Assembly (NCBI GenBank): GCA_002897895.1
Contig: BDSY01000058.1
Location: 40,109-104,108 of the forward strand
Origin: a bacterium BMS3Abin06
GTDB taxonomy: Bacteria > Nitrospirota > Thermodesulfovibrionia > UBA6902
DNA length: 64,000 bases
Direction: 5' to 3'
Shown: positions 3,593 through 47,635 of the stretch, one piece after another
Position numbering within the stretch: the first letter of the stretch is position 1
Layout: each line of letters starts with the position of its first letter
The notes under the pieces: model-generated
The model's input: the letters and a program-made list of their open reading frames with translations, nothing else
What the model was told of the DNA's origin: nothing
Databases searched by the model: none
Program-made: the position numbers and the translations under genes

Positions 3593-5080
3593 TCAAAAGG
3601 GCAGCTTGACCGGCAGTGATCCTTTAAAATTCCTTTCACCTTTTAAACATTTGATAACAGATACTTGTGCCTGTTTACTTGTATCGTATGCTGCAATGAG
3701 CAAATCCGCCTTCGGGAAATGTCCGAGCACGTAAGGACTCCCAAAGGATATCACGATTGAATTGCGGGAATTTTTTATAAGTTTCCGGATGATATTTATT
3801 TCATCGTCCCTGATACCTGAACTCCCTCCCCATGCAGCGATACTGGTGAAGAGGGCAAAGACGACTGTTTTCCGGAGAGACTCTTTTTCAGAGTCTTTGA
3901 TCCTGATATGTCCGGATATGAAATTTTTCAGAGTGGATAAGTCATGCTTGTTTTCATCAGCGGCAAATGCAAGAGAAAGACCCTGAGTATTTTTGATCGG
4001 CAGCACTCCGGGGGAGTCTTTCACAAGTGTGACGGACTTATCGGAAATTCTTTCGGAAAGCCCGGCATGTTCCTGATAATTAATTCCGGATTTTCGGATA
4101 TTTTTTATCTTTGATTTATATTTCAGAATTCTTTCCACGGCAGTGTCTATCGTCCCCTCATCAATCTTCCCTGATGCAACGGCCTGTTTAAGTTCTTCAA
4201 CAACCGAATCAGCATCTGCCGGATGAAGGAGGATGTCGCCCCCTGCATTTATGCACATTGCCGGGACATTTTCATATTCATTCAGGGCATGCATGTTCAG
4301 CGCATCCGTAAGAACAAGACCTTCATATCCCAAATCCGTTCTTAACAGGCCGGTTATCACTTTTTTTGAAAGAGAGGCAGGAAGTTCATCAATTGCCGGG
4401 ATGCTGAGGTGTCCGGTCATAATACTGCCGGCACCTGCTTTTACGGCTTCCCTGAAGGGGAATATATCCGTATTCATCAGCTCGTCAAAAGATTTGGAAA
4501 TAACGGGGAGGGCTATGTGGGAATCAATGGCTGTGTCGCCGTGTCCGGGGAAATGTTTGGCACAGCTTATCAGCCCTGCATCTTCAATGGTCTTTATGTA
4601 TGTTTTGCCGTACCATGAAACATTTTCCTGATTGTCGGAAAATGCCCTTGTACAGATTATCGGATTGTCGGGATTCCTGTTCACATCCATGACCGGTATG
4701 AGCGGCATATTGATTCCGATATCAATCGCTTCATGAGAAACAGCATTAATTACATCTTCGAGAATTTCCACGTCTGAGGAATTATTTTTATTGATTGCTG
4801 CGGCTACAGCCATCTGGCAGGGGAAATGAGTAGCTCCGTCTATTTGCTGTCCCACGCCCCGCTCTATATCGGATGCAATAAACAGGGGTGTTTCTGATAC
4901 AGACTGAAGTTTATTAATGAAAGTTTTTACTTCATTCCTTTTACCGCCAAACAGGATGAACCCTCCGATACCTTTTCGAACAAGTTCAGAAGCCCGCTCC
5001 TGATACTGAATTGAAGAGAGTTTTTCTCCATCAAGTCTGCTTATGATAAGTTGCCAGAGTTTTTGCTCAAGGCCGGACAT
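3593..5080 (-). CDS. Glycoside hydrolase family 3 protein (NagZ-like beta-N-acetylhexosaminidase / beta-glucosidase-like)
   Basis: KHFPGHGDT motif and GH3 N-terminal fold signature; 495 aa. Its first 144 nt lie inside direct-repeat copy 1. Confidence 0.7.
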   Translation of the reverse strand: MSGLEQKLWQLIISRLDGEKLSSIQYQERASELVRKGIGGFILFGGKRNEVKTFINKLQSVSETPLFIASDIERGVGQQIDGATHFPCQMAVAAAINKNNSSDVEILEDVINAVSHEAIDIGINMPLIPVMDVNRNPDNPIICTRAFSDNQENVSWYGKTYIKTIEDAGLISCAKHFPGHGDTAIDSHIALPVISKSFDELMNTDIFPFREAVKAGAGSIMTGHLSIPAIDELPASLSKKVITGLLRTDLGYEGLVLTDALNMHALNEYENVPAMCINAGGDILLHPADADSVVEELKQAVASGKIDEGTIDTAVERILKYKSKIKNIRKSGINYQEHAGLSERISDKSVTLVKDSPGVLPIKNTQGLSLAFAADENKHDLSTLKNFISGHIRIKDSEKESLRKTVVFALFTSIAAWGGSSGIRDDEINIIRKLIKNSRNSIVISFGSPYVLGHFPKADLLIAAYDTSKQAQVSVIKCLKGERNFKGSLPVKLPF

Positions 5081-17198: not shown

Positions 17199-17891
17199 AT
17201 GACAAACAGACGGAATTATTACCGTATACTCCAGGTTCAGCCCGATGCCCCACTGGAAATTATTCGCTCCTGCTATTACACGCTTATGCGTAAATTAAAG
17301 CAGCATCCGGACCTTGGCGGTGAACACTGGAATGCTGTAATTATAAATGAGGCTTATGCAACCCTCAGAGATAGCAATAAACGCGCTGAATATGATAAAA
17401 GACTCTTTGAACATTATACAAAAAAACCGATTCCTGATAAAAATTCCGTCAGGAAACCTTCCATCAGCATCTTTTGCCCTTTCTGCAAAAGACCCCTTGC
17501 GCGTAAAGCAAAACCCGGGGAAAGCTGTCCTTCATGCAGAAGTCCTTTACAAGCAATGAGTACCGGGGAAGCATTGCACCATGATTATCATCGCTCGGTT
17601 GATCGTATAAAAAAGTCCGGGAACCTTCGATACTATTCTTCCTGGCCCCAAAAGGGAAAAGAAGCAAAAATTCTTGACCTTTCACCAAAAGGAATTCGTT
17701 TTCTGTGTGCTGAGGAACTGGACCGGGAATTAATTGTCAAGCTGAGTAGTCCTTTGTTGAAAGCGATTGCAAAAGTAATAGATACCCAAAAAAAGGAGGC
17801 AGGTGGAAAGACTTTCTTTGCTGTTGGAGCCCAGTTTCTTACGGTGAACTTTGCGAACCCGAAAGGCTCATTTTTTTCTACTATTATTTAA
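17199..17891 (+). CDS. J-domain protein with Cys4 zinc-ribbon and C-terminal PilZ-like domain
   Basis: HPD motif (KQHPDLGG), CPFC...CPSC, then RSVDR ... DLSPKG (RxxxR / DxSxxG c-di-GMP-binding pattern). Confidence 0.5.
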   Translation: MTNRRNYYRILQVQPDAPLEIIRSCYYTLMRKLKQHPDLGGEHWNAVIINEAYATLRDSNKRAEYDKRLFEHYTKKPIPDKNSVRKPSISIFCPFCKRPLARKAKPGESCPSCRSPLQAMSTGEALHHDYHRSVDRIKKSGNLRYYSSWPQKGKEAKILDLSPKGIRFLCAEELDRELIVKLSSPLLKAIAKVIDTQKKEAGGKTFFAVGAQFLTVNFANPKGSFFSTII

Positions 17892-18004: not shown

Positions 18005-19027
18005 ATGGTAAATAATCATAATGCTGTCCATGCTGAAAAACCCGGGCAGGAAGATCTGAGGGATATGATTGCCAGATATTTGCCCCCTGAGCGTGTGCCG
18101 AAAAAAGTCAAAGTTATCACAGATACATCTGATTTCTTCAGGGTTGATTACGATGATGTGGTTGTTCTTGATGGACGGCCTTACCTTATCAGGAATTATG
18201 AACGGGAGGGGCGTTTCAGCATAGATGAGCAGCCGAAATTCTGGGTTAAGAGGGCCATTGACCTGGAGGATGGAAGTCTGAAAATTATTAAAATGGTCTT
18301 CTCTGAAAGATTCAGGGCAAAGGTTGGCGATATGATTTTTGAATGTGTGCGAAGTTCTAAAAAAGAGGCCAGAATTCTTGATTTAGTCAGGGGTCACCCG
18401 AATTTCATGCATGGATTCAGCACCAGAGACTCTACCGGGAATATCATAAGAATCATTGACTATATCCCTGGCATAACCATGGATATCCTGATATCAAGAC
18501 TCGGCAGAAACCATGAGGACTACTTTTATAATTACTTCCCTTCAGTTTTTGTCGATTATATCGAGCTGGTCGAGGCCATTGCATTTCTTCACAGGCATGG
18601 TGAAAAACATGGGGACATCAGGCGCGACCATATTATAAAGGATAAGCGAGGAGGCCGGTACAGGTGGATAGACTTTGATTTTAACTATTGGCATAAAGAG
18701 AATATGTTTGGTTATGATCTGTTCGGGCTGGGCAATGTCCTGGTTTATCTTGCAGGGCGGGGGGATGTTACCACACAGTATCTTGGACATAATAATCAGG
18801 CTGCATTGCAAAGGCTGACTATTGATGACATGAACATTATTTTTAATAACCGGGTAGTCAATCTGAAAAAGATTTATCCTTATATCCCTGATACACTTAA
18901 TTTTGTGCTGCTTCACTTTTCTGCAGGGGCGGAGGTCTTCTATGATGATACCGGGCAATTACTGGATGATCTGAATGAAGCAAGAGATAATCTTAACGTT
19001 GCTCATGATTCAGTAAGGGAGGAATAA
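18005..19027 (+). CDS. Protein-kinase-like (atypical Ser/Thr kinase or phosphotransferase fold) protein
   Basis: Catalytic-loop-like HGDIRRDHII and DFD (WIDFDFN) motifs. Confidence 0.4.
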   Translation: MVNNHNAVHAEKPGQEDLRDMIARYLPPERVPKKVKVITDTSDFFRVDYDDVVVLDGRPYLIRNYEREGRFSIDEQPKFWVKRAIDLEDGSLKIIKMVFSERFRAKVGDMIFECVRSSKKEARILDLVRGHPNFMHGFSTRDSTGNIIRIIDYIPGITMDILISRLGRNHEDYFYNYFPSVFVDYIELVEAIAFLHRHGEKHGDIRRDHIIKDKRGGRYRWIDFDFNYWHKENMFGYDLFGLGNVLVYLAGRGDVTTQYLGHNNQAALQRLTIDDMNIIFNNRVVNLKKIYPYIPDTLNFVLLHFSAGAEVFYDDTGQLLDDLNEARDNLNVAHDSVREE

Positions 19028-36529: not shown

Positions 36530-36931
36530 ATGAAGAAAGCTACTACAAACTGGTTACTATCAATGGAGTACGACTTAAAAACCGCCGCATCATTATTAAA
36601 AAACAAGAGATATATCTATGTGGTCTTTATGTGCCATCTTGCCATAGAGAAAGCCCTGAAAGCGATACTTTCAGAGATGCATAAAGAACTGCCGCCGTAT
36701 ACCCATAATATCAATCGACTGATAGAGTTAGGAACTATATCACTACCTGACACCTATCAGGTTTTTATTGACAAAATCAATCTCCAGAGTGTACCAACAA
36801 GATATCCTGAGGATTTTCAGAAAATTTCAAAAGAATTCAATAAAAAGATCGCTGAAGATTATTTAAAGCAAACAAGGGGAATAATAAGATGGTTAAAGCA
36901 AAATATACCACAACTGAAATCAAAAAAATAG
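36530..36931 (+). CDS. HEPN-domain protein (toxin-like partner of the MNT)
   Basis: CHLAIEKALKA helix typical of HEPN; 133 aa. Confidence 0.6.
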   Translation: MKKATTNWLLSMEYDLKTAASLLKNKRYIYVVFMCHLAIEKALKAILSEMHKELPPYTHNINRLIELGTISLPDTYQVFIDKINLQSVPTRYPEDFQKISKEFNKKIAEDYLKQTRGIIRWLKQNIPQLKSKK

Positions 36932-37230
36932 TAAGAGCTTTGGTTGAAATACTTATTACAAATAACATAGCTGTCGATAAAATAATATTGTACGGTTCTT
37001 ACGCCACCGGCAGACCTCGTAACCATTCAGACATAGACATAGCAGTGATTTCACCTTCTTTTAACGGGAAGAAAATTCTGGAAATTCAGGAAGAACTTGC
37101 AAAGGCATTTTCAAAATATCTGTCAATAATAGAACCTGTTGGATATTCATCAGAAGATTTCCGGGCTGCTGAACCGGAGACCCTGCTCGGTGAAATTAAG
37201 AAGGCAGGAAAGATACTGTATGCTGCTTGA
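36889..37230 (+). CDS. Minimal nucleotidyltransferase (MNT) domain protein
   Basis: LYGSYATG....SDIDIAV (GSx9-13DxD); overlaps the HEPN gene by 43 nt. Confidence 0.7.
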   Translation: MVKAKYTTTEIKKIVRALVEILITNNIAVDKIILYGSYATGRPRNHSDIDIAVISPSFNGKKILEIQEELAKAFSKYLSIIEPVGYSSEDFRAAEPETLLGEIKKAGKILYAA

Positions 37231-37269
37231 AAAGCAGACAACCATAAGATGCTGATGGATGCATCAGAT

Positions 37270-37592
37270 ATAGACATACTGTATCTGCAATGCAGAGTCA
37301 AATTTGGCAGCGAATTGCTGATAATGACTCGCACAAAGTGTTGATTTCTAATTGACAAACATGCTTGCCATGATATATAAAATGATACTGCTGATTCACC
37401 AAAACCAAAATAAGCTCCAATTTCCCTTAATGGAGAGCCATTAAATCTATGGCTTGCATATATCGTCACCTTTTTCGCAATTGATTCATCGTAAAAAAGA
37501 TTCGTCACCTTTTTATATATTGACTCAATATTTTCAACTTTTCTGATCTCTCTCATTGCAGGAAAATCTCTGTCCTTGTTTTTCAGATTCAT
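37270..37592 (-). CDS. Hypothetical HTH protein with a DnaA domain-IV-like segment (possibly truncated)
   Basis: ...LREIGAYFGFGESAVS... resembles the DnaA C-terminal HTH. The upstream ORF-track extension overlaps the MNT gene, so only the N-terminal ~107 codons are called. Confidence 0.25.
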
Positions 37593-37722
37593 GTTCTATG
37601 GTTATTTGGGCAACAACCCGTAAAGATGCGACACCACAAAGAGAGAAAGAAGATTTTTCAGTGGCTTAATGCATTAAGCAGTTGTTAAGATATGCAAAAA
37701 ATAATAATGGAAATGAGAGGGG

Positions 37723-37840
37723 ACAGAACACTGAAAGGACAATTTCAGCAGCCTGTCAGGGGCTGATCCCGTTCAGTCTCCGTTGGATATTATGTTGATA
37801 TTTGAAATGGTTCTTATAGCATGCATTCTCGTCGCAGGTA
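37723..37840. repeat. 118-bp direct repeat copy A (diverged duplicate of the promoter and 5' end of the gene at 38500)
   Basis: 111/118 identical to 38440..38557. Encodes a truncated MDIMLIFEMVLIACILVAG... Confidence 0.8.
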
Positions 37841-37915
37841 CTCGTCAGACGTTTAGCCTTAAGGAATAAATGTTGAAACAATCTGATACTATTACTGATA
37901 TAATGATAAAATAAT

Positions 37916-38158
37916 ATGAAAGCAACAGAATATTTCAAATACATTCGAAAAAGGCCGGATAGGAGTATTATTAAAGATGAATGGATTGAGAAGGTTATCA
38001 ACTATCCATTGAAAGAGGAAATTCAATCAGATGGAAGAATCAGGAGATGGGCAAAAATAGAAGAAATGGACGGAAGAGCATTGAGGGTTATATTGTTAAG
38101 TGATGGAGAAACTGTTCATAATACATTTTTCGATAGATCATTCAAGGAGGATCGATAA
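37916..38158 (+). CDS. DUF4258-like small protein (putative toxin)
   Basis: 80 aa with a ...GRALRVILLSDGETVHNTFFDR tail. Confidence 0.45.
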   Translation: MKATEYFKYIRKRPDRSIIKDEWIEKVINYPLKEEIQSDGRIRRWAKIEEMDGRALRVILLSDGETVHNTFFDRSFKEDR

Positions 38159-38365
38159 ATGAAAATAAAATATTTTTCCGATACAGATACGGCATTATTG
38201 GAATTTTCTGAGAATGAAGTATACGAAACAAAAGAAATAAATGAAAATATATACATTGACCTGGGCAAGGATGGCAAGTTAATAAGTATGACAATAGAAC
38301 ACGCTAAAGAGCAGGCAACAATAAAAGAGTTCTCCTATCAGGAAATTGAGAAAGAAATTGCATGA
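38159..38365 (+). CDS. DUF2283-like small protein (putative antitoxin)
   Basis: MKIKYFSDTDTALLEFSENEV... has a typical DUF2283 start. Its start abuts the previous stop. Confidence 0.5.
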   Translation: MKIKYFSDTDTALLEFSENEVYETKEINENIYIDLGKDGKLISMTIEHAKEQATIKEFSYQEIEKEIA

Positions 38366-38439
38366 CTGGATAACAAGACAGTTGTTATCTTCCCAATTAA
38401 ACCAACTCAAAGAATAATCCAATCGTCAGTGGGGGCGCC

Positions 38440-38557
38440 ACAGAACACTGAAAGGACAATTTCAACAGCCTGTCAAGGGCTGATCCCGTTCAGTCTCCCT
38501 TGGATATTATGTTAATATTTGAAATCGTTCTTATAGCTTGCATCCTCGTCGCAGGTA
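38440..38557. repeat. 118-bp direct repeat copy B (native 5' region of the methyltransferase gene)
   Basis: See copy A. Confidence 0.8.
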
Positions 38558-39069
38558 TGCTTATTGTGTTGACATCGATGAAAACCGGCATTTCTCCTTC
38601 CCCGAGTTCAAGCAAGACTGTCCGGGCAATGATGGCAACTATGGAAGATTCAGGAGCAGGACCTATCGTGGACCTGGGGTCCGGGTGGGGAACACTCGTT
38701 ATCGCATTCGCCGGAAAGTACCCGCAGCGACAGGTGATTGGTTATGAATTATCACTGGTTCCATGGTTATTCTCATCGATTCGCAAGTCTGTCTCGCGAT
38801 TGAACAATCTGACCCTGTATCGCAAAGATTTCCGGAATGCCGACCTCTCTCATGCATCTGTCCTCACATGTTACCTGTTCCCCGGGGGCATGGTTTCTCT
38901 TAAGGAAAAACTGGAACGCGACAAGATAACAGAAGTCCTCATTGTGAGCAGCACATTTGCACTGCCATCATCAGAGCCAACCAGGGTTATTCGGGTAAAG
39001 GACATGTACAGAACTCCGATTTATCTGTATCATCAAAGCCGGAGGGCCGTGTGTGGTCAATCTTTATAA
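38500..39069 (+). CDS. Small membrane-anchored class I SAM-dependent methyltransferase
   Basis: N-terminal TM helix and motif I VDLGSGWGT. Confidence 0.55.
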   Translation: MDIMLIFEIVLIACILVAGMLIVLTSMKTGISPSPSSSKTVRAMMATMEDSGAGPIVDLGSGWGTLVIAFAGKYPQRQVIGYELSLVPWLFSSIRKSVSRLNNLTLYRKDFRNADLSHASVLTCYLFPGGMVSLKEKLERDKITEVLIVSSTFALPSSEPTRVIRVKDMYRTPIYLYHQSRRAVCGQSL

Positions 39070-39267
39070 TTGACAAAAATAAAATGCTCTGACTTAGTTT
39101 CAAAACAGCGGCATACAGAAAACATGGTCTGCGCCACAATAAGTAATGCGCAATATTTCTGAAACCAATTCTTGCATTTGAGTATCAACACTCGCTTGTG
39201 CAAGGATGAGTTGTTTTTCCCTTCTGAAAATGGTAGTATTTATTCATACCGGCAAGGAGGCTTTTCA

Positions 39268-39504
39268 ATGGCAACAGCAGTAAAGAAAACAATATCACTT
39301 CCACCTGAACTCGCAAAAGAAGCTGAAGAGATTGCCCGCGAGGAAGGGAAGCCGCTGAGTGTTGTAATTCAGGATGCCCTGCGGCTCGCCAGAAAAGAAA
39401 GACTCAAAAAGGGATTTAAAGAATTACAGGGATACTGGAGTAGTAAAGCTAAAGAAAAAGGTATCCTAACCGAAAAAGATCTGCAGAAATACCTCAAAAA
39501 ATGA
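39268..39504 (+). CDS. Ribbon-helix-helix (CopG-like) antitoxin
   Basis: SD AAGGAGG. MATAVKKTISLPPELAKEAEEIAREEGK.... The start is chosen downstream of the ORF-track start. Confidence 0.55.
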   Translation: MATAVKKTISLPPELAKEAEEIAREEGKPLSVVIQDALRLARKERLKKGFKELQGYWSSKAKEKGILTEKDLQKYLKK

Positions 39505-39893
39505 GGGTTGTTTTTGATTCAAATATTTTCATTTCCGCCCTCATTATTCACGGCAGCCGGGCTGAAAAGGCAATTGTCAGGATTGTCAATAATCAGGATA
39601 TACTTGTCCTGTCCAAGACGATCATTGATGAGGTATTATCCGTTCTTGCTAAAAAATTCAGTCGTGACAGAGAGGCTATAAGCCGTGTTGCAGTTTATCT
39701 TGATGAGCTGGGAGATATCGTTTGTCCAATCAAGATGCTCAAGATATTCAGGGACGATCCTGATAACAGGATTCTTGAATGCGCAGTCAGCGGAAAAGCA
39801 GACGCAATCGTAACCGGTGATAAAGAAATGCTCAGTTTAAAGGAGTATAAAGGGATAAAGATAATGACTCTAAGAGATTATATGGAGCATTAA
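39501..39893 (+). CDS. PIN-domain toxin (VapC-like)
   Basis: MRVVFDSNIFISAL start and conserved acidic residues; overlaps the antitoxin stop. Confidence 0.65.
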   Translation: MRVVFDSNIFISALIIHGSRAEKAIVRIVNNQDILVLSKTIIDEVLSVLAKKFSRDREAISRVAVYLDELGDIVCPIKMLKIFRDDPDNRILECAVSGKADAIVTGDKEMLSLKEYKGIKIMTLRDYMEH

Positions 39894-39941
39894 CAATTAA
39901 TTTTCCGCGCCGCATTCTTTCTTTAAACCCATATAGGAATA

Positions 39942-41087
39942 TTGTTTATGTATGAATATCAGAGGAATAAGCTTTATTTTGCCCAGATTGCAGATGGGAT
40001 AAAAGAACTGGGGGTAGAGGAACTGTCTGAACTTGGTGCGCGTAAAGTCAGCCCTGCATATGGGGGGATTTATTTTAATGCGGACAGGGAAGCGCTTTAT
40101 CGAATCAATTATTTCACAAGATTTGCTTCAAGAATTCTTGCGCCCCTCGTCTCGTTTGATTGCGGCACTTCCGATCAATTATACGAAAAGGCAAAACAGA
40201 TAAACTGGCCGGATTTTATTTCCGGGAAAAATACATTTGCCGTATTCGGTAATGTATCAAACAGCATGATAACTAATTCACATTATGCATCTCTACGTTT
40301 AAAAGATGGAATTGCCGATTCATTCCGGGAGATATCCGGGAAAAGGCCTGATGTTGACTCAAGAAATCCGGATATATGGCTGAACCTCCACATCAGAGAT
40401 GACAAAGCCGTGATTAGTCTGGATACATCCGGAGGTTCTCTTCATCGCCGGGGATACAGAAAAGATTCCGTGTCTGCACCAATGCAGGAGACGGTTGCTG
40501 CGGCGATTATCAGATATGCAGAATGGAATGGAGAAGTTCCGCTTTATGATCCAATGTGCGGTTCCGGCACTTTACTCTGTGAAGCGTTGATGCATTACTG
40601 CAAAATCCCTTCAGCTATTTTTCGTGAACACTTTGGATTTGAATTTTTGCCGGACTATGATAGCTCAGTATGGAAAAAAGTCAAAAAAGAACTTAACGGG
40701 CAAATCCGGGACCTGCCTGAAGGATGTATTGTCGGCAGTGATTTATCCCCAAAAGCTGTTGAAATATCAAGGCTGAATATATGTAATTTGGAGTATGGAG
40801 AAAAAATAAAACTTGAAGCGCTTGATTTCAGAAAAATCAAAGGTCTGGAAAATGGAATTATTATTACAAATCCTCCGTACGGCATCCGTATGGGAAACAG
40901 GCAGGAACTTGATCTCCTTTACAAATCGCTTGGAGATTTTTTAAAACAGAAATGCAAAGGTTCTGCTGCCTATATTTATTTCGGTGAACGGGAATTTATA
41001 AAAAAAATCGGCCTGAAACCGACCTGGAAAAAGCCGTTGAAAACAGGCGGCCTTGATGGAAGATTAGTAAAATATGAGATGTTTTAA
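39942..41087 (+). CDS. THUMP-domain RNA (guanine-N2) methyltransferase, RlmL/Trm14-like
   Basis: NPPYG motif (IITNPPYGIRMG) and a SAM-binding DPMCGSGT. Confidence 0.7.
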   Translation: MFMYEYQRNKLYFAQIADGIKELGVEELSELGARKVSPAYGGIYFNADREALYRINYFTRFASRILAPLVSFDCGTSDQLYEKAKQINWPDFISGKNTFAVFGNVSNSMITNSHYASLRLKDGIADSFREISGKRPDVDSRNPDIWLNLHIRDDKAVISLDTSGGSLHRRGYRKDSVSAPMQETVAAAIIRYAEWNGEVPLYDPMCGSGTLLCEALMHYCKIPSAIFREHFGFEFLPDYDSSVWKKVKKELNGQIRDLPEGCIVGSDLSPKAVEISRLNICNLEYGEKIKLEALDFRKIKGLENGIIITNPPYGIRMGNRQELDLLYKSLGDFLKQKCKGSAAYIYFGEREFIKKIGLKPTWKKPLKTGGLDGRLVKYEMF

Positions 41088-41091
41088 ATAA

Positions 41092-41583
41092 ATGGAAGAG
41101 AAAAGTAAAACACAAAGGAAAAAAGAAGCTCAGTCTTTGCAGGTGCTTGGAGAGAAGCTTGTGAAATTGTCAATTGAACAGATCAAAGAGATTGATCTGC
41201 CGGTTGAAATTTACGACGCCGTCAAATTTGCAAAAACAATTAAAAAACATGGTGCGATTAAAAGGCAGATGCAGTACATTGGTACAGTGATGCGAAAATA
41301 TGATCCTGAGCCTATTCGGGAAGCCCTTGATAATATAGAACATGGGAACTACAAAAAAGCCATGGCATTCAAAGAGATAGAAGAATGGCGGGATGAACTT
41401 ATAGCCGGAAATAAAATGCTTATGGAAGAAATATTGGAAAAATGTCCTGATGCAGACCGGCAGCAATTAACCCAGCTTGTTCGGAATGCTATCAGGGAAA
41501 TGGAGAATAATAAGCCGCCCAGGGCATCCCGGACATTATTCCATTATCTATCTAAAGAAAATAAGAAACAGGTAAGATATTAA
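41092..41583 (+). CDS. yjgA: Ribosome-associated protein YjgA/DarP (DUF615)
   Basis: QMQYIGTVMRKYDPEPIREALD and PDADRQQLTQLVRNAIRE...NKPP match the E. coli YjgA pattern. Confidence 0.7.
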   Translation: MEEKSKTQRKKEAQSLQVLGEKLVKLSIEQIKEIDLPVEIYDAVKFAKTIKKHGAIKRQMQYIGTVMRKYDPEPIREALDNIEHGNYKKAMAFKEIEEWRDELIAGNKMLMEEILEKCPDADRQQLTQLVRNAIREMENNKPPRASRTLFHYLSKENKKQVRY

Positions 41584-41607
41584 AAATCCAATAAAGTGAG
41601 GTTGAAG

Positions 41608-41925
41608 ATGAAAGAATATGTCATGATTCCTTTTCAGGTAGAGGAGGACAAATTAGAAGAGGCGAAGAAGGCCATAAATGAGCTTATCTCTAATGTTCGT
41701 GAGAATGAGCCCGGAACGCTGCTTTACAAATCACTTCAGTTAAAGAAAGACCCGACAAGTTTCGTTCATTTTATGGTTTTTGCCGATAATGCTTCTCACA
41801 TGCATCACCGCACCGCTAAATATGTATTGGAATTTGTGAAAAAACTTTATTCTCTTTGCCCTAATGAACCGTATCCGATTTTTCTTGAGAATTTTGATTC
41901 ATGCGGTATTGCTTTAGAACCATAA
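41608..41925 (+). CDS. Antibiotic-biosynthesis-monooxygenase (ABM/Dabb-like) small alpha+beta barrel protein
   Basis: About 105 aa with a ferredoxin-like fold pattern. Confidence 0.35.
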   Translation: MKEYVMIPFQVEEDKLEEAKKAINELISNVRENEPGTLLYKSLQLKKDPTSFVHFMVFADNASHMHHRTAKYVLEFVKKLYSLCPNEPYPIFLENFDSCGIALEP

Positions 41926-41953
41926 AGGTAGTGGGTCATTTTGGGATAATAGT

Positions 41954-42376
41954 TCACGAATTTTTTATAGAGAAACATCTTTTTGGATAATTTATTTTAA
42001 GAGTAAAATTATCTAAAAAACTTCTAACACCCAATAAAACGATATTTAAGCCTTCAGAAAAATCAATAGATTTATCAGGGATACTGTAAATGACTTTATT
42101 TTGTTTTATGTCAAATATTTCAATTGTTGTTGTGTGTGAATATGCAGTAGTCAGACCTCCAGCAGTATGAACAGGCTTAGCCGTTCCATTTTCAAGTTTA
42201 TGCCCTAATTGTTCAGTTAAGAAAGCAGGCATAGTACAATCATCTGCCCCTGTATCAATCAAACCGTAAGTATCGATATGTTTACGCGTATGCGGATTAG
42301 TTATTCTAACAGGCAACCAGGGACGTTCTACATCATTTTTCCTTAAACATAAGAACGGGAAGTCTGTTATTGGCAT
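41954..42376 (-). CDS. Retropepsin-like aspartic protease (clan AA)
   Basis: GLIDTGAD (D-T/S-G-A) active-site motif. Confidence 0.6.
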   Translation of the reverse strand: MPITDFPFLCLRKNDVERPWLPVRITNPHTRKHIDTYGLIDTGADDCTMPAFLTEQLGHKLENGTAKPVHTAGGLTTAYSHTTTIEIFDIKQNKVIYSIPDKSIDFSEGLNIVLLGVRSFLDNFTLKINYPKRCFSIKNS

Positions 42377-42594
42377 TAATATATATGTACCATACCCTTT
42401 TTAGGTACATAAAATATTACAGGGTTTCTTGCGCCCTTCTTTTTTGCATTGTTGAAAACTTTTGCGGGATCAGAGCCGGAACTTAGCACCTCATTGTTCT
42501 TAAAAGAACGAGTGGCAACATATTTGCCATCATACTTACTGCCATCTTTTAACAAAATAGTAGCTTGCATATTGTTCCTCTCTTTCTTCTTCAT
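42376..42594 (-). CDS. Small hypothetical protein immediately upstream of the retropepsin-like gene
   Basis: 72 aa. Its stop is adjacent to the start of the downstream gene. Confidence 0.3.
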   Translation of the reverse strand: MKKKERNNMQATILLKDGSKYDGKYVATRSFKNNEVLSSGSDPAKVFNNAKKKGARNPVIFYVPKKGMVHIY

Positions 42595-42967
42595 GGTTTT
42601 TATATCGGGATATCATTACTTTTACTTTAATTATAGAATGATAAGGGTAATAGTCAATAGAAAGCACAAAAACGGTATCTCTTTTGGCCCAATGTTCATA
42701 GATTATTATTAATTTATTATAGGATTCTGTCAAGCATTATTTGGATATTAAGAAATATTATACTATGCAGATAATATGGGAATATGTGTGACCTGTTCTA
42801 CAATAGAACGGGCAAGGACATTAATATCTTTGGAAGGTTTTTGCGTTACGGGTTTTTTGCTTGACCGTTTAGGCATGTTTTATTCTAACATGCCGTACTG
42901 TCATTGTCTATAACCATGAAATCCAAACTGACCCACTACCATAAAAAAGACAATAAAAAAGACTTTC

Positions 42968-43147
42968 TTGACACACTGTTTTTGAAGCAGTATACTTAAA
43001 ACTTACCTGGGGGAGGCGATGCCTGAGAGTCCCGGCTATTCGGGAGACCCCTTGAACCTGAACTGGTTAATGCCAGCGGAGGAAAGGATAAATAGCACCT
43101 TATACCGTATTCCCGCAGGTAGTTACCATAAGGGAATACGGTTTTTT
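42968..43147 (+). ncRNA. Promoter (TTGACA-17-TATACT) plus TPP (THI-box) riboswitch with terminator expression platform
   Basis: CTGAGA, ACCC and TTGAACCTGAACTGGTTAATGCCAGCGGAGG THI-box core. An 11-bp perfect hairpin ACCGTATTCCC/GGGAATACGGT with a T-run lies at 43104..43147. Confidence 0.8.
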
Positions 43148-43159
43148 ATTTGGAGAAAA

Positions 43160-44476
43160 ATGGATCAAAAAGAACTCACGAAATCCGATGCATTATATAT
43201 CAGGGATATCCTTGCGAAATCTCTTGATATGCAATCATTGAACCTTACCGAGGTCTCGGCGCTTTTAGAAGTAAGCGACAGGTACCTGTGGTCGGAGATA
43301 TTTGATGCTGCACGCAGTGTAAAGGAAAAGGTTTATGGAAAAAGGATCGTGCTCTTTGCCCCGCTCTATCTGTCAAACGAGTGCATGAATGACTGTTTGT
43401 ATTGTGGTTTCAGAAAGGGCAACACGGATGCAAAGAGAAAAACGCTTACTGTAAATGAAGCGCTCGAAGAGGCGGCCCTGCTTGCAGGCAGGGGATATAA
43501 AAGGCTTCTGCTTGTTTCGAGTGAACATCCAAAACGTGCGGGTATTGATTATTTTGAAAAAATTACAGATGCAATTTATAAGAAAACGGATATTCGGATC
43601 CTGCACGTAAACTCCGCCCCTATGAGCGTGGATGATTTTAAAAGGCTCAAGGCCTCGGGTGTTGGTGTATATCAGTGCTTCCAGGAGACATATCACATGC
43701 CGACTTACAGGTTTATGCATCCGACAGGGTCTAAATCGGATTATGCATGGCGTCTGGGAGTAATGGACAGGGCAATAGAAGCCGGCTTTGAGGATGTGGG
43801 AATGGGCGTGCTGCTTGGCCTTTATGACTGGCGCTGGGATGTGGCTGCATTGATTGCCCATTGCCGGAGGCTTATTAATAAATACGGATTCGGCCCTCAC
43901 ACCCTCTCTGTTCCGAGATTGCAGCCGGCACAGGGTTCTAAGGCGGATAATTTACGGTACAGGGTTTCGGACGATGACCTCAAAAAAATAGTCGCTATTT
44001 ACAGGCTGGCCCTGCCTTATGTCGGCGTTGTTGTTTCTACGAGAGAGCCGTCCGGACTCAGGGATGAACTGTTTTCATCAGGTGCGTCGCAGGTGTCGGC
44101 GGGGTCAAAGACGAGCCCGTGGGGCTATATGAAGGACGGTGATACCGAACAGTTTGAGATTGGAGACAGCAGGAGTCTTGAAGAGGTCATAGGGAAGATT
44201 GCAAGCCTTGGACTCATGCCGAGTCTCTGCACAGCCTGTTACAGGGAAGGCAGGAGCGGAGAGCGGTTTAAGAATCTTGCGGAGGAGACAACTATTAAAA
44301 ACTTCTGTCATGAAAATGCCCTCTTGTCTCTCAAAGAATACGTGGAAGATTGTGCATCAGGTGAAGTGAAAAAAGAATTAACAAAAATATTGAATGAAGA
44401 AATCGCTAAAAGCCGGAACGGTCTTGCTGAAAAGTTTAAACTTATTGAGGCTGGTAAGAGGGATATGCATGTATGA
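43160..44476 (+). CDS. thiH: ThiH/HydG-family tyrosine-lyase radical SAM enzyme (thiazole biosynthesis context; HydG-like C-terminal CX2CX22C)
   Basis: CMNDCLYC rSAM motif. C-terminal CTAC-22 residues-C. Sits behind the TPP riboswitch and ahead of thiSGEC. The start is reset to the ATG after the riboswitch. Confidence 0.65.
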   Translation: MDQKELTKSDALYIRDILAKSLDMQSLNLTEVSALLEVSDRYLWSEIFDAARSVKEKVYGKRIVLFAPLYLSNECMNDCLYCGFRKGNTDAKRKTLTVNEALEEAALLAGRGYKRLLLVSSEHPKRAGIDYFEKITDAIYKKTDIRILHVNSAPMSVDDFKRLKASGVGVYQCFQETYHMPTYRFMHPTGSKSDYAWRLGVMDRAIEAGFEDVGMGVLLGLYDWRWDVAALIAHCRRLINKYGFGPHTLSVPRLQPAQGSKADNLRYRVSDDDLKKIVAIYRLALPYVGVVVSTREPSGLRDELFSSGASQVSAGSKTSPWGYMKDGDTEQFEIGDSRSLEEVIGKIASLGLMPSLCTACYREGRSGERFKNLAEETTIKNFCHENALLSLKEYVEDCASGEVKKELTKILNEEIAKSRNGLAEKFKLIEAGKRDMHV

Positions 44477-44630
44477 ATTTAGAGTCTGTGTATAAATAAC
44501 GCAAATGCTCAAAAGCATGTCATTCCCGCAAGCGAAGCGAGTCGGGAATCCTTCTTAAAGAAACGATTCCGGACAAGCCGGAATGACAGAAAAACGACAA
44601 CTGTTAGACTTTATACACAGACACTAATTA
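44476..44630. mobile_element. MITE-like element, copy 2 (155 bp; right TIR identical to copy 1, left TIR 18/21)
   Basis: TTTATACACAGACACTAATTA at 44610..44630, in the thiH-thiS intergenic region. Confidence 0.6.
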
Positions 44631-44646: not shown

Positions 44647-44847
44647 ATGAAATTAATATTAAATGGCAATGAGACTGAATTCAGTGATGATCTTACGGTC
44701 GCAGGACTATTGAAGAATCTTGAGATCGAGCCTGTAAGGGTTGCGGTTGAGGTTAATCTGAATATTCTCAAAAAATGTGATTTTAAAAAGCATGTCCTGA
44801 AAGATGGCGATGCGGTGGAGATAGTTAATTTTGTAGGGGGAGGGTAG
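44647..44847 (+). CDS. thiS: Sulfur-carrier protein ThiS (ends Gly-Gly)
   Basis: 66 aa ending ...NFVGGG. Confidence 0.75.
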
Positions 44848-44854
44848 GAATTTA

Positions 44855-45625
44855 ATGGATAACAAATTAGTAATCAGAGGTATTGAGTTTAAGTCCCGTC
44901 TCTGGGTCGGGACAGGGAAGTATAAAGACTTTGAAGAGACTGCAAGGGCTATTGAGGCATCCGGCGCTGATGTTGTCACTGTTGCGGTAAGAAGGACAAA
45001 TATATTTGACAGAAAGTCGAAAAATCTGCTGGATTACATTGATCCTGAAAAATACAAAATTCTTCCCAATACAGCGGGCTGTTATACGGTTGAGGATGCT
45101 TTAAGGTACTCCAGGCTTGCAAGAGAAGCAGGGGTATCCGACCTTATCAAACTTGAAGTCATTGGTGATGAAAAGACTCTTTTCCCGGACAATATCGGTC
45201 TTTTAGAGGCAACTGAGATACTGGCAAAAGAAGGATTTATTGTCCTTCCTTATACTAACGATGACCCGGTTATGGCACAGAGGCTTGTCGATGCAGGAGC
45301 TGCTGCGGTTATGCCGCTTGCCGCGCCGATAGGGTCGGGGCTGGGAATACGAAATCCGTATAACATAAAAATCATTCTTGAACAGGCTAAAGTTCCGATT
45401 ATTGTTGATGCCGGAGTCGGCACTGCCTCTGATGTTGCAATTGCAATGGAATTAGGCTGCGATGCAGTTCTATTAAATACGGCGATAGCAGGGGCCGAAT
45501 ATCCTGTTGCCATGGCAGAAGCCATGAAACACGCTGTCATGGCAGGCCGTCTGGCTTATAAGGCAGGCAGGATTCCGAGGAAGCTTTATGCAACTGCAAG
45601 CAGTCAGATTGAGGGAATGCTGTAA
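44855..45625 (+). CDS. thiG: Thiazole synthase
   Basis: ThiG TIM-barrel signature; 256 aa. Confidence 0.85.
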
Positions 45626-45629
45626 GGAA

Positions 45630-45657
45630 AATTACGAATTACGAATTAGGAATTACG
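45630..45657. repeat. Heptamer tandem repeat (AATTACG)x4, one variant unit
   Basis: Read directly, between thiG and thiE. Confidence 0.8.
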
Positions 45658-45683
45658 AATTGGTTGATTTTAATTTATATCTT

Positions 45684-46304
45684 ATGACTGATAGAAAACG
45701 GTTGTTGAAAACTCAAAATCCGAAACTCGAAACCCGGAAATTATTATCTGCTGTAAGGCAGGCGTTAAAAGGCGGGGTAAGGGCAATCCAGGTTAGAGAA
45801 AAAGATCTGGATACACGGGAGCTTTTGAAGCTGGCATATAAAATGAGAGACCTGACAAATAATTTTAATGCGCGTCTTTTTATAAACGACAGGTTTGATA
45901 TTGCGCTTGCAGTCGGCGCTGATGGTGTCCACCTTGCGCAAAACAGTATTCCGGTTGAAGCTGTTAGAAATGCAGTAAAGAAAAAACTTGTGATCGGGGT
46001 TTCGACACATTCTTTGAAAGAGGCAAAGGCTGCTGAAAAGGGAGGGGCTGATTTTATTACTCTCGGCCCTGTTTACAGAACACCGTCAAAACTGAAATAC
46101 GGTGACCCTGTAGGTCTGGATACTTTAAGCAAAGTAAGCGGTACAATAAAAATTCCGGTCTTTGCAATCGGTGGAATAAAGAGAGACAGGATAGAAAAAG
46201 TAAAGAAAGCAGGGGCCTTCGGGGTTGCAATGATATCGGAAATATTTGGAGCTGAGGATATAAAAGAAAGAGCAAATGAAATAAATCAAAAATTGGAAAC
46301 TTGA
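45684..46304 (+). CDS. thiE: Thiamine-phosphate synthase
   Basis: LYLMTD start and TMP-TENI pattern. The start is chosen downstream of the ORF-track start, which runs through the heptamer repeat. Confidence 0.75.
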   Translation: MTDRKRLLKTQNPKLETRKLLSAVRQALKGGVRAIQVREKDLDTRELLKLAYKMRDLTNNFNARLFINDRFDIALAVGADGVHLAQNSIPVEAVRNAVKKKLVIGVSTHSLKEAKAAEKGGADFITLGPVYRTPSKLKYGDPVGLDTLSKVSGTIKIPVFAIGGIKRDRIEKVKKAGAFGVAMISEIFGAEDIKERANEINQKLET

Positions 46305-46333: not shown

Positions 46334-47635
46334 ATGATCAAAACTCTGGAACATACAAGGATTGAGCTTGCAGGAAAAGGGATTATTACGGATGAAGTAA
46401 AGCAGGTGGCTGTTGATGAAAACATTGACCCCGAGCAGCTTTCAAAAGATATTGCCGAAGGTCTGACAGTTATATCAAGAAATATCAAGCACGATATAAA
46501 ACCATTAGGAATCGGCAGGGGCCTGAGGACAAAGATAAATGCCAACATCGGCACGTCAAAAGACAGGATATCTCTTGATGAAGAGATGCAAAAACTCGAT
46601 GTGCTGATTCAATACGGCGCTGATGCTGTGATGGACCTTTCTACTGGCGGGCCGATAAAAGAGATCAGGAGGCTGCTTCTCAGTAAGTCGACTGTCTCGG
46701 TCGGTACTGTCCCCATTTACGAGGCTGTGGCAAAGGCAGCTGAAGACAGGGGTTCGATTGCAAAGATGAGTGTTGATGACCTGTTTAATGTAATAGAAGG
46801 GCATGCAGAAGAGGGCGTTGATTTTGTTACTGTTCATTCCGGACTCACAAGAAAAACTATCGAGACGCTCAGAGAGGACGGAAGAATACTTGATATCGTC
46901 AGCCGCGGCGGGGCGTTTCTTGTTGAGTGGATGATATACAATGACAGGGAGAATCCGCTTTATGAAGATTATGACAGATTGCTGGAACTCGCAAAGAAAT
47001 ATGACCTGACATTAAGCCTCGGTGACGCAGCGCGGCCCGGATGTATTTCCGATGCCACAGACAGGACTCAGATAGATGAGCTCCTGACGCTTGGAGAATT
47101 AAGGGACAGGGCAGTTAAAGAAGGAATCCAGGTCATCATTGAAGGACCCGGACATGTGCCGATTAACCAGGTTGAATTGAACATAAAAATGCAAAAAGAA
47201 ATTTGTAAGGGCGCACCGTTTTATGTGCTTGGCCCCCTTGTAACGGATATTGCAATGGGTTATGACCATATATCGTCTGCTATTGGCGGTGCCATTGCCG
47301 GCGCAGCAGGCGCTGACTTCCTCTGCTATGTTACGCCTTCAGAACATATCAGGCTTCCGAATATAGAAGATGTTAAAGAAGGAGTTATTGCATCAAAGAT
47401 TGCGGCACATGCGGCGGATATTGCAAAAGGCGTCAAAGGCGCTATTGATATTGATAATGAAATGGCGAGGAGAAGAAAGGCGCTTGACTGGAACGGCCAG
47501 ATAGAGCTTTCATTAAATCCTGAAAGAGTAAAGAGCCGGCGCTCGGAAGTGCCTCCAACCGAATCAGAGGTCTGCAGCATGTGCGGAGAATTTTGTGCTA
47601 TCAAAACCGTGGAAGAGGCTTTGAAGAAAAGGTAG
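46334..47635 (+). CDS. thiC: Phosphomethylpyrimidine synthase
   Basis: C-terminal CSMCGEFCA Fe-S motif; 433 aa. Confidence 0.85.
   Translation: MIKTLEHTRIELAGKGIITDEVKQVAVDENIDPEQLSKDIAEGLTVISRNIKHDIKPLGIGRGLRTKINANIGTSKDRISLDEEMQKLDVLIQYGADAVMDLSTGGPIKEIRRLLLSKSTVSVGTVPIYEAVAKAAEDRGSIAKMSVDDLFNVIEGHAEEGVDFVTVHSGLTRKTIETLREDGRILDIVSRGGAFLVEWMIYNDRENPLYEDYDRLLELAKKYDLTLSLGDAARPGCISDATDRTQIDELLTLGELRDRAVKEGIQVIIEGPGHVPINQVELNIKMQKEICKGAPFYVLGPLVTDIAMGYDHISSAIGGAIAGAAGADFLCYVTPSEHIRLPNIEDVKEGVIASKIAAHAADIAKGVKGAIDIDNEMARRRKALDWNGQIELSLNPERVKSRRSEVPPTESEVCSMCGEFCAIKTVEEALKKR

Follow-up and report, generated by a model that had tools for sequence, protein, structure and literature searches.

The DNA analysed here is a window of 64 kb (64,000 nucleotides; positions 40,109 to 104,108 of contig BDSY01000058.1, assembly GCA_002897895.1) from "bacterium BMS3Abin06". 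It carries a thiamine operon in which a riboswitch for thiamine pyrophosphate (TPP) and an intrinsic terminator precede the genes of a radical S-adenosylmethionine (SAM) tyrosine lyase, ThiS, ThiG, ThiE and ThiC (Table 1). The lyase, referred to below as the window protein, is the subject of this study. By all structural criteria it is an enzyme of HydG architecture, i.e. of the type of the [FeFe]-hydrogenase maturase, and by sequence criteria it is not a member of the ThiH family. It belongs to a large sister group of the hyd-linked HydGs (those encoded beside hydE, hydF or hydA) which was not previously set apart; in the openly accessible literature no description of thi-linked HydG-type enzymes was found. 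Judged from its clade and operon context, the window protein is most likely a producer of the thiazole precursor that is misnamed "HydG" in databases.

Table 1. Features of the thiamine operon and of its tyrosine lyase (positions in the window; residue numbers of the window protein; pLDDT, predicted local distance difference test)
Feature	Position	Strand	Details
Sigma-70-like promoter	42968-42996	+	TTGACA (42968-42973), 17-nt spacer, TATACT (42991-42996); 11/12 matches
TPP riboswitch aptamer (THI element)	42999-43101	+	RF00059, 66.2 bits (gathering score 54.3), E = 8.7e-11
Intrinsic terminator / expression platform	43104-43149	+	hairpin 43104-43143, 11-bp stem, free energy -20.9 kcal/mol, then TTTTTTATTT
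Ribosome-binding site and start codon	43152-43155; 43160-43162	+	GGAG; ATG; resulting length of 438 amino acids fits most close homologues
Tyrosine lyase gene	43160-44476	+	438 amino acids; HydG-architecture radical SAM enzyme of the thi-linked clade (TIGR03955, 4wcx match, fold)
Radical SAM motif C75-X3-C79-X2-C82	43382-43405	+	CMNDCLYC; invariant in alignment A4
Signature Ile147 (TiHydG Arg165)	43598-43600	+	Arg in 55/55 hyd-clade sequences
Signature His149 (TiHydG Asn167)	43604-43606	+	Asn in 54/55 hyd-clade sequences
Signature Val170 (TiHydG Thr188)	43667-43669	+	Thr in 54/55 hyd-clade sequences
His247 (TiHydG His265, dangler-iron ligand)	43898-43900	+	in GPHTLSVPRL; invariant in A4
C-terminal auxiliary Fe-S domain	44216-44473	+	pLDDT 86-96 throughout
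CX2CX22C motif, Cys357-TA-Cys360-X22-Cys383	44228-44308	+	aligns with the TiHydG and ChHydG motifs
Nested inverted-repeat element	44479-44627	.	~150 nt, between the tyrosine lyase stop and thiS
thiS (sulfur carrier protein)	44647-44847	+	NCBIfam/Pfam
thiG (thiazole synthase)	44855-45625	+	PF05690, 371.5 bits
thiE (thiamine phosphate synthase)	45588-46304	+	TIGR00693 match begins at residue 30
thiC (4-amino-5-hydroxymethyl-2-methylpyrimidine phosphate synthase)	46334-47635	+	NCBIfam/Pfam

Family, fold and signature residues of the tyrosine lyase

The window protein passed the NCBIfam HydG equivalog model TIGR03955 with 421.7 bits (cut-off 312.15), whereas it failed the ThiH model TIGR02351 with 299.1 bits (cut-off 380). 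With TIGR03955, a hyd-linked control (L015) scored 527.4 bits and the thi-linked protein of Moorella 432.7 bits. Sequence matches in the PDB ran end to end, C-terminal domain included, with HydG of Thermoanaerobacter italicus (TiHydG, 4wcx; 395.8 bits) and of Carboxydothermus (ChHydG, 4rtb; 362.6 bits). In contrast, the match to ThiH 7pd1 (175.9 bits) stopped at residue 354. The AlphaFold (AF2) model of the window protein, with a pLDDT of 92.4, consists of a triosephosphate isomerase (TIM) barrel and a C-terminal helical domain. Its comparison with chain A of 4wcx gave a template modelling (TM) score of 0.95 and a root-mean-square deviation of 1.8 Å (Foldseek), and the query-normalised TM scores with ThiH were 0.73-0.75. 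An earlier note on this DNA, made from the letters alone, had described a ThiH-family enzyme carrying a HydG-type C-terminal motif. The motif stood, while the family had to be revised, as the protein passes the HydG model, fails that of ThiH and has the HydG fold together with the histidine ligand of the dangler iron.

The description of the first gene as a tyrosine-lyase-type radical SAM enzyme was borne out by the CX3CX2C motif and by the tyrosine-binding residues. Those named for ThiH/HydG are T299, R300, R306, S318 and S321 in TcThiH numbering (PMC9046217), and their counterparts in the window protein, T294, R295, R301, S313 and S316, are all present and invariant in A4. The CX2CX22C spacing at the C-terminus was found exactly as noted earlier and is no coincidence: none of the 120 close homologues, and none of the 29 loci that have the thi-type signature defined below, lacks any of the three Cys. 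The conserved histidine ligand of the dangler iron is His265 in TiHydG (PMC10114646). The corresponding His247 was likewise kept in the 120 close homologues and the 29 thi-type loci, across several phyla, and is missing from ThiH and from the short forms treated below. The offset of 14 in the 4wcx chain numbering was fixed via F81 and F192 as quoted in PMC9046217. The histidine of the IAHCRR motif was dropped as a candidate dangler ligand, as it is also conserved in ThiH. At the position of the carboxylate-binding Glu158 of ThiH, the window protein has Asn151 (LHVNSAP). Glu158 in ThiH versus Asn in HydG was abandoned as a discriminator, Glu being found in about one third of the sampled hyd-linked HydGs. 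The compensating Glu133 of HydG (PMC9046217) was unusable too, since ChHydG, the window protein and most of the hyd-linked sequences have Val there.

Neighbour-joining trees were calculated on the barrel core; they comprised all locus proteins and the two crystallised HydGs, along with ThiH of E. coli and Thermosinus and representatives of the ThiH type. Every thi-linked long form fell into one clade and every hyd-linked protein into another. Once fragmentary and divergent representatives had been removed, the bootstrap values were 86-96% for the thi clade and 88-100% for the hyd clade; the two clades together against ThiH, as well as the split between them among the long forms, reached 100%. 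The phylogeny that the earlier note had proposed as a check therefore places the window protein outside ThiH.

Nine alignment positions carry a residue that at least 85% of the thi-clade sequences share and that hardly occurs in the hyd clade. The signature used below consists of Ile147, His149 and Val170, which take the place of Arg165, Asn167 and Thr188, all three present in both crystallised HydGs (4wcx, 4rtb); this criterion was derived in the present analysis and is not an established definition of HydG. Ile-His-Val was found in 118 of the 120 close homologues and Arg-Asn-Thr in 117/117 relatives of Carboxydothermus HydG. Further distinguishing positions (window protein/TiHydG) are Val291/Ile309 (55/55 in the hyd clade), Val292/Leu310, Ala309/Ile327, Leu356/Phe-or-Tyr379, Phe210/Ile228 and Thr143/Gly161. 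Leu356 replaces the aromatic residue that precedes the first auxiliary Cys in hyd-linked HydG. The signature residues lie on the model's predicted beta strands 147-151 and 170-172: residues 147 and 149 share one strand with Asn151, and Val170 stands four residues ahead of the channel residue equivalent to TiHydG Phe192. Their side chains should point into the barrel beneath the tyrosine site, that is, into what is in HydG the channel to the auxiliary cluster. A mixed signature, Arg-His-Val, was observed in a Planctomycetia metagenome-assembled genome (MAG; L080, 6067-7464) with the Cys triad and the histidine intact and an uninformative gene context; this protein may be an intermediate between the two clades.

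The mean pairwise identity within the thi clade was 0.545 for the C-terminal domain and 0.569 for the core. The domain thus appears to be under selection in this clade, yet it can be lost. A true short form of 363 amino acids is encoded in a Nitrospirae MAG (L088, 2561-5878). It ends at the barrel-closing GxxP motif, lacks both the C-terminal domain and the dangler histidine, has the signature Arg-Asn-Leu, and its gene stands behind a TPP riboswitch and ahead of a thiS-thiG fusion and thiE. The short forms make up a small thi-linked lineage of Nitrospirota. On another metagenomic contig (L085, 8001-9382), an open reading frame (ORF) of 363 amino acids is overlapped by one of 97 amino acids which carries the C-terminal domain with an intact CX2CX22C motif, and thiS-thiG-thiE-thiC follow; the split may reflect an artefactual frameshift or an enzyme that truly consists of two pieces. 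P0349 was rejected as a short form, as its gene is split and the C-terminal domain is a separate ORF.

Two further kinds of HydG-family proteins were met among the representatives. P0135, P0137, P0153 and P0206 are long forms with Gly in place of the second auxiliary Cys (C-G-C pattern). In P0121, P0123, P0124 and P0131, proteins of 800-906 amino acids, the HydG-type module is C-terminal; a second, N-terminal radical SAM CX3CX2C motif is present in the first three and absent in P0131. These four may be HydE-HydG or similar fusions.

Genomic context and distribution of the two clades

An identical protein was found in the Nitrospirota MAG GCA_011050745.1. The best 120 homologues were at least 72% identical, and their named sources were nearly all Nitrospirae, Nitrospiraceae or Nitrospirota. 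The complete Nitrospirota chromosomes CP070788.1 and CP070632.1 have the same order, tyrosine lyase gene-thiS-thiG-thiE-thiC. For a wider sample, one genome per GTDB species was scanned with an alignment of 7 sequences, resulting in 80 loci with 41-64% identity to a related protein. These are the loci most similar to one thi-clade protein, and the sample of hyd-linked genes among them is not exhaustive. The loci were annotated by phmmer with HydA, HydE and HydF seeds, verified with NCBIfam, and with thi proteins taken both from the window and from E. coli.

The two context classes, thiS/thiG/thiE/thiC adjoining and hydE/hydF/hydA adjoining, never mixed, and the signature triad predicted the context perfectly across 81 loci. 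The Ile/His/Val type, including one Met/His/Val, was found at 29 loci, of which 25 lie beside thiS/thiG, 2 have thiF only and 2 are on short contigs; hydE, hydF or hydA was next to the gene in none of the 29. The Arg/Asn/Thr type accounted for 52 loci. It included all 34 genes that adjoin hydE, hydF or hydA, and thiS/thiG adjoined none of the 52. No further ThiH-like gene was detected in any thi-linked operon among the phmmer-annotated loci. Independent look-ups agreed with the pattern: P0299, P0300 and P0364 (Thermanaeromonas toyohensis) were Ile-His-Val and thi-linked, and P0370 (Petroclostridium) was Arg-Asn-Thr and lies within hydG-aspA-hydF.

The riboswitch followed the same division. A TPP riboswitch was found upstream of the gene or operon in 27 of the 29 thi-type loci, the exceptions being L005 (at a contig edge) and L017, and upstream of the gene in 0/52 Arg/Asn/Thr-type loci, with the results of Rfam and of a covariance model of our own taken together. 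This model was built from 26 hits and run on 87 sources (1.29 Mb), where it recovered the E. coli thiC riboswitch as the positive control. At one Arg/Asn/Thr-type locus, that of Halanaerobium polyolivorans (L068), two TPP riboswitches about 600 nt apart (17337-17444 and 18035-18134) front thiamine-related genes about 6 kb downstream of an ordinary hydG-hydE pair, to which they are unrelated. Two TPP riboswitches of relatives, L003 9766-9945 and L018 462-644, are about 180 nt long with large insertions; they scored below the Rfam gathering score and 71-77 bits with the model built from relatives.

Members of the thi clade were found in Nitrospirota, Desulfobacterota ("Deltaproteobacteria"), Thermodesulfobacteriota MAGs and one Deferrimicrobiaceae MAG. 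Cultured carriers are the Bacillota Moorella mulderi DSM 14980 (L025, with the order thiE-thiS-thiG-gene) and Thermanaeromonas toyohensis ToBE (L086). A Nitrospirota MAG (L052) encodes a hyd-type HydG beside HydE, and both types thus occur in this phylum. In a MAG labelled Deferribacteres (L023), the thi-clade protein groups with Nitrospirota sequences, and the thi operon is preceded, at a distance of about 5 kb, by a cyclic di-GMP-I riboswitch (3779-3860; 49.5 bits). The naming of the thi clade is in conflict, being "[FeFe] hydrogenase maturase HydG" at NCBI and "2-iminoacetate synthase" at JGI. The reverse case is the hyd-linked Petroclostridium protein P0370, named 2-iminoacetate synthase by NCBI.

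Leader and neighbouring genes

The near-consensus promoter, the THI-box core and the terminator hairpin, all read from the leader earlier, were each recovered, the hairpin together with a U-run (Table 1). The Rfam search suggested at that time gave a full-length match to RF00059 (model positions 1-105), the sole Rfam match within the window; with covariance model R1, made in this analysis, the aptamer scored 93.4 bits. Transcription is predicted to start near 43003, directly ahead of the aptamer P1 helix. The terminator hairpin begins three bases 3' of the aptamer, and a consensus terminator scan had overlooked it because its loop is longer than 8 nt. An equivalent hairpin with a U-run was kept in 10/10 Nitrospirota relatives with a varying stem sequence, and in most other lineages as well. 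Together with the aptamer score, this conservation supports control by transcription termination, as had been claimed. When the nascent transcript was folded without the 3' arm of the terminator, the 5' strand of the aptamer (43003-43013) paired with the 5' arm and loop of the terminator. This pairing is a plausible candidate antiterminator that TPP binding would pre-empt. In the mechanical listing the ORF begins at 43019 and overlaps the aptamer; the true start codon is the ATG at 43160, and most close homologues are 432-438 amino acids long.

The thiS-thiG-thiE-thiC context was verified with NCBIfam and Pfam. As the earlier note had also stated, no hydE, hydF or hydA lies nearby: none was found in the window by phmmer with the verified seeds. 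The listed thiE ORF shares 38 nt with thiG, and the ThiE family match does not cover its first ~29 residues; the true thiE start is probably further downstream than 45588. The inverted-repeat element ahead of thiS has outer arms of 18 nt (44479-44496, 44610-44627) and inner arms of 12 nt (44518-44529, 44577-44588). It is present in one copy in the window, and the same spacer is just 30-80 nt long in close relatives. The element looks like a lineage-specific insertion in the operon, possibly similar to a miniature inverted-repeat transposable element or a repetitive extragenic palindrome. Directly upstream of the operon, at 36530-42600, several toxin-antitoxin-like modules (HEPN/nucleotidyltransferase, PIN, DUF2283) were observed that are absent at the equivalent position in both complete Nitrospirota genomes.

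Function of the thi-linked enzyme and comparison with known systems

We consider it likely that the window protein is a TPP-repressed tyrosine lyase which is isofunctional with ThiH, has the architecture of HydG and is encoded in a thiamine operon attenuated by a TPP riboswitch. The anatomy of the locus, the family and fold assignment, the clade split and the context association were computed; from these we infer the enzymatic product, the logic of the riboswitch and the meaning of the substitutions. The suggestion of thiazole synthesis in the earlier note is backed by the consistent thi linkage, the riboswitch control and a clade apart from hyd-linked HydG. On the other side, the window protein is not placed in the functional HydG family: it differs from HydG in context, clade and invariant residues, although it passes the family hidden Markov model. 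A hyd cluster elsewhere in the genome, which the earlier note would have taken as the mark of a true HydG, would not make it one, because the hyd-linked HydGs are a different clade with different invariant residues.

The proposed sequence of events is the following. Abundant TPP would bind the aptamer, the hairpin and U-run would terminate transcription and the operon would be off; when TPP is scarce, transcription would read through into the tyrosine lyase gene, thiS, thiG, thiE and thiC. The radical SAM cluster would cleave L-tyrosine to p-cresol and 2-iminoacetate (dehydroglycine), from which, together with the ThiS thiocarboxylate and 1-deoxy-D-xylulose 5-phosphate, ThiG would build the thiazole. 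The lyase would thus do the work of ThiH. HydG without its C-terminal domain is reported to act in a ThiH-like manner and to make mainly 2-iminoacetate (PMC10114646), which indicates that the HydG scaffold can supply this product. In enzymes without the domain the product would escape; in the thi clade, which has the domain, the residues predicted below the active site are altered. The substitution of Ile for Arg, His for Asn and Val for Thr may block the breakdown of 2-iminoacetate to CO and cyanide or divert it, in which case the intermediate would reach ThiG. The auxiliary cluster probably still binds in the thi-clade enzyme, where its role could be structural, redox-related or that of a gate.

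Several points weigh against this assignment. In HydG, the C-terminal domain closes off the barrel at its bottom, and it is there that ThiH is thought to pass 2-iminoacetate on to ThiG (PMC9046217). The ligands of the auxiliary cluster are kept no less strictly than in true HydG, which would be unexpected of a domain that has no part in the thiamine function. The position of the signature residues at the channel is derived from beta-strand periodicity and predicted secondary structure. The context covers the loci only, and a canonical gene for ThiH or ThiO may lie elsewhere in the carrier genomes, as may hyd genes which use the protein. Finally, the bootstrap values of deep nodes in the neighbour-joining trees were weak (40-70%) when short or divergent representatives were included, and 33-40% in the tree of all representatives; fragmentary or divergent representatives were the cause, and the support rose once they were removed.

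It is unlikely that the enzyme is a plain ThiH in function whose auxiliary cluster is a functionless relic on its way to being lost. The loss of the domain in the 363-amino-acid Nitrospirota lineage (L088) and its occurrence as a separate 97-amino-acid ORF (L085) do indicate that it is dispensable in some backgrounds. However, the Cys triad and the histidine are complete in all 120 close homologues and all 29 thi-type loci of several phyla, the domain is about as conserved as the catalytic core, and the structural model is confident across it.

Very unlikely, in our estimate, is a bifunctional enzyme that delivers 2-iminoacetate to ThiG and, where [FeFe]-hydrogenases are present, makes the Fe(CO)2(CN)-cysteine synthon as well. 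All known auxiliary-site ligands of HydG (Cys357, Cys360, Cys383 and His247) are retained in a fold that is HydG-like throughout. Moorella species carry [FeFe] hydrogenases, and Moorella and Thermanaeromonas were absent among the best 120 matches seeded with Carboxydothermus HydG, a search not designed to prove the absence of a second hydG. On the other hand, a TPP-dependent shut-off of a hydrogenase maturase would make little physiological sense, and hydE, hydF and hydA are missing from the neighbourhood of all 29 thi-type genes. Moreover, the Arg165, Asn167 and Thr188 of 54-55 of the 55 hyd-clade sequences are replaced in the window protein, and at least one Nitrospirota MAG (L052) has a separate hyd-type HydG beside HydE.

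That a genuine HydG merely lies beside thiamine genes, with the real ThiH or ThiO elsewhere, is hardly credible: the NCBIfam HydG cut-off is passed and NCBI annotates the clade as HydG, but context and phylogeny contradict it, as the gene directly follows the riboswitch and terminator as the first of a tightly spaced operon whose arrangement is kept across phyla, and the protein is outside the hyd-linked clade and without its invariant residues.

As to the origin of the clade, it is conceivable, though doubtful, that the thi-linked long forms represent the ancestral state of the whole HydG family. The auxiliary domain, with its Cys triad and the dangler-iron histidine, would then have arisen in a thiamine-pathway tyrosine lyase and been exapted for H-cluster maturation, with the switch between Ile/His/Val and Arg/Asn/Thr deciding whether 2-iminoacetate is exported or fragmented to CO and cyanide. 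The trees are compatible with either origin considered in the earlier note, a HydG-like enzyme recruited to thiamine synthesis or an ancestral intermediate. In the neighbour-joining trees, ThiH and then the short thi-linked forms were successive outgroups to the thi-linked long forms plus hyd-linked HydG, an order that would fit an origin of the domain in the thiamine pathway. The Arg-Asn of the short forms, however, makes Ile-His-Val look derived, and the deep nodes are weak.

The existence of the clade has practical consequences. The auxiliary-cluster motif and the dangler-iron histidine have been treated as diagnostic of H-cluster maturation. Since a large clade of several phyla carries both in a thiamine context, their presence does not suffice to identify a HydG. 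The [FeFe]-hydrogenase maturation capacity inferred from metagenomes (e.g. for Nitrospirota and Desulfobacterota MAGs) will be inflated as long as the two clades are not told apart, and the residue triad offers a simple test to separate the thi type from the hyd type. The conversion of 2-iminoacetate to CO and cyanide by HydG has been described as the remaining grey area of the mechanism (PMC10114646). Natural paralogues with the same scaffold and a few invariant barrel residues changed give a direct mutational handle on this step, and the cultured carriers Moorella mulderi and Thermanaeromonas toyohensis allow experimental testing.

Compared with known systems, the leader is ordinary: as in other TPP riboswitches with terminator platforms (RF00059), a canonical aptamer and an intrinsic terminator stand ahead of thiamine genes, with nothing unusual in the window copy. 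With ThiH (TIGR02351; E. coli ThiH and Thermosinus carboxydivorans 7PD1) the window protein shares the operon position with thiS/thiG, the TPP-riboswitch control, the radical SAM tyrosine-lyase core and the tyrosine-binding residues, and the product delivered to ThiG is presumed to be the same. It is, however, only about 29-37% identical to ThiH in the core, and its ~85 extra residues form the Fe-S domain that ThiH lacks. With HydG (TiHydG, 4wcx) the homology is full-length, with about 43-50% identity depending on the alignment used and the TM score of 0.95. The two proteins have in common the CX3CX2C motif of radical SAM enzymes, the residues that bind tyrosine, an Asn where ThiH has Glu158, the helical domain at the C-terminus with its CX2CX22C motif and the histidine ligand of the dangler iron. 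In contrast to HydG, the window protein is about 20-30 residues shorter N-terminally, and its separate clade is found in thi operons behind a TPP riboswitch, never adjoining hydE, hydF or hydA. The natural 363-amino-acid thi-linked short forms (L088) resemble the C-terminally truncated HydG of the laboratory. The window protein, unlike these, keeps the domain and its ligands, and the release of 2-iminoacetate would need another route, perhaps through the altered residues.

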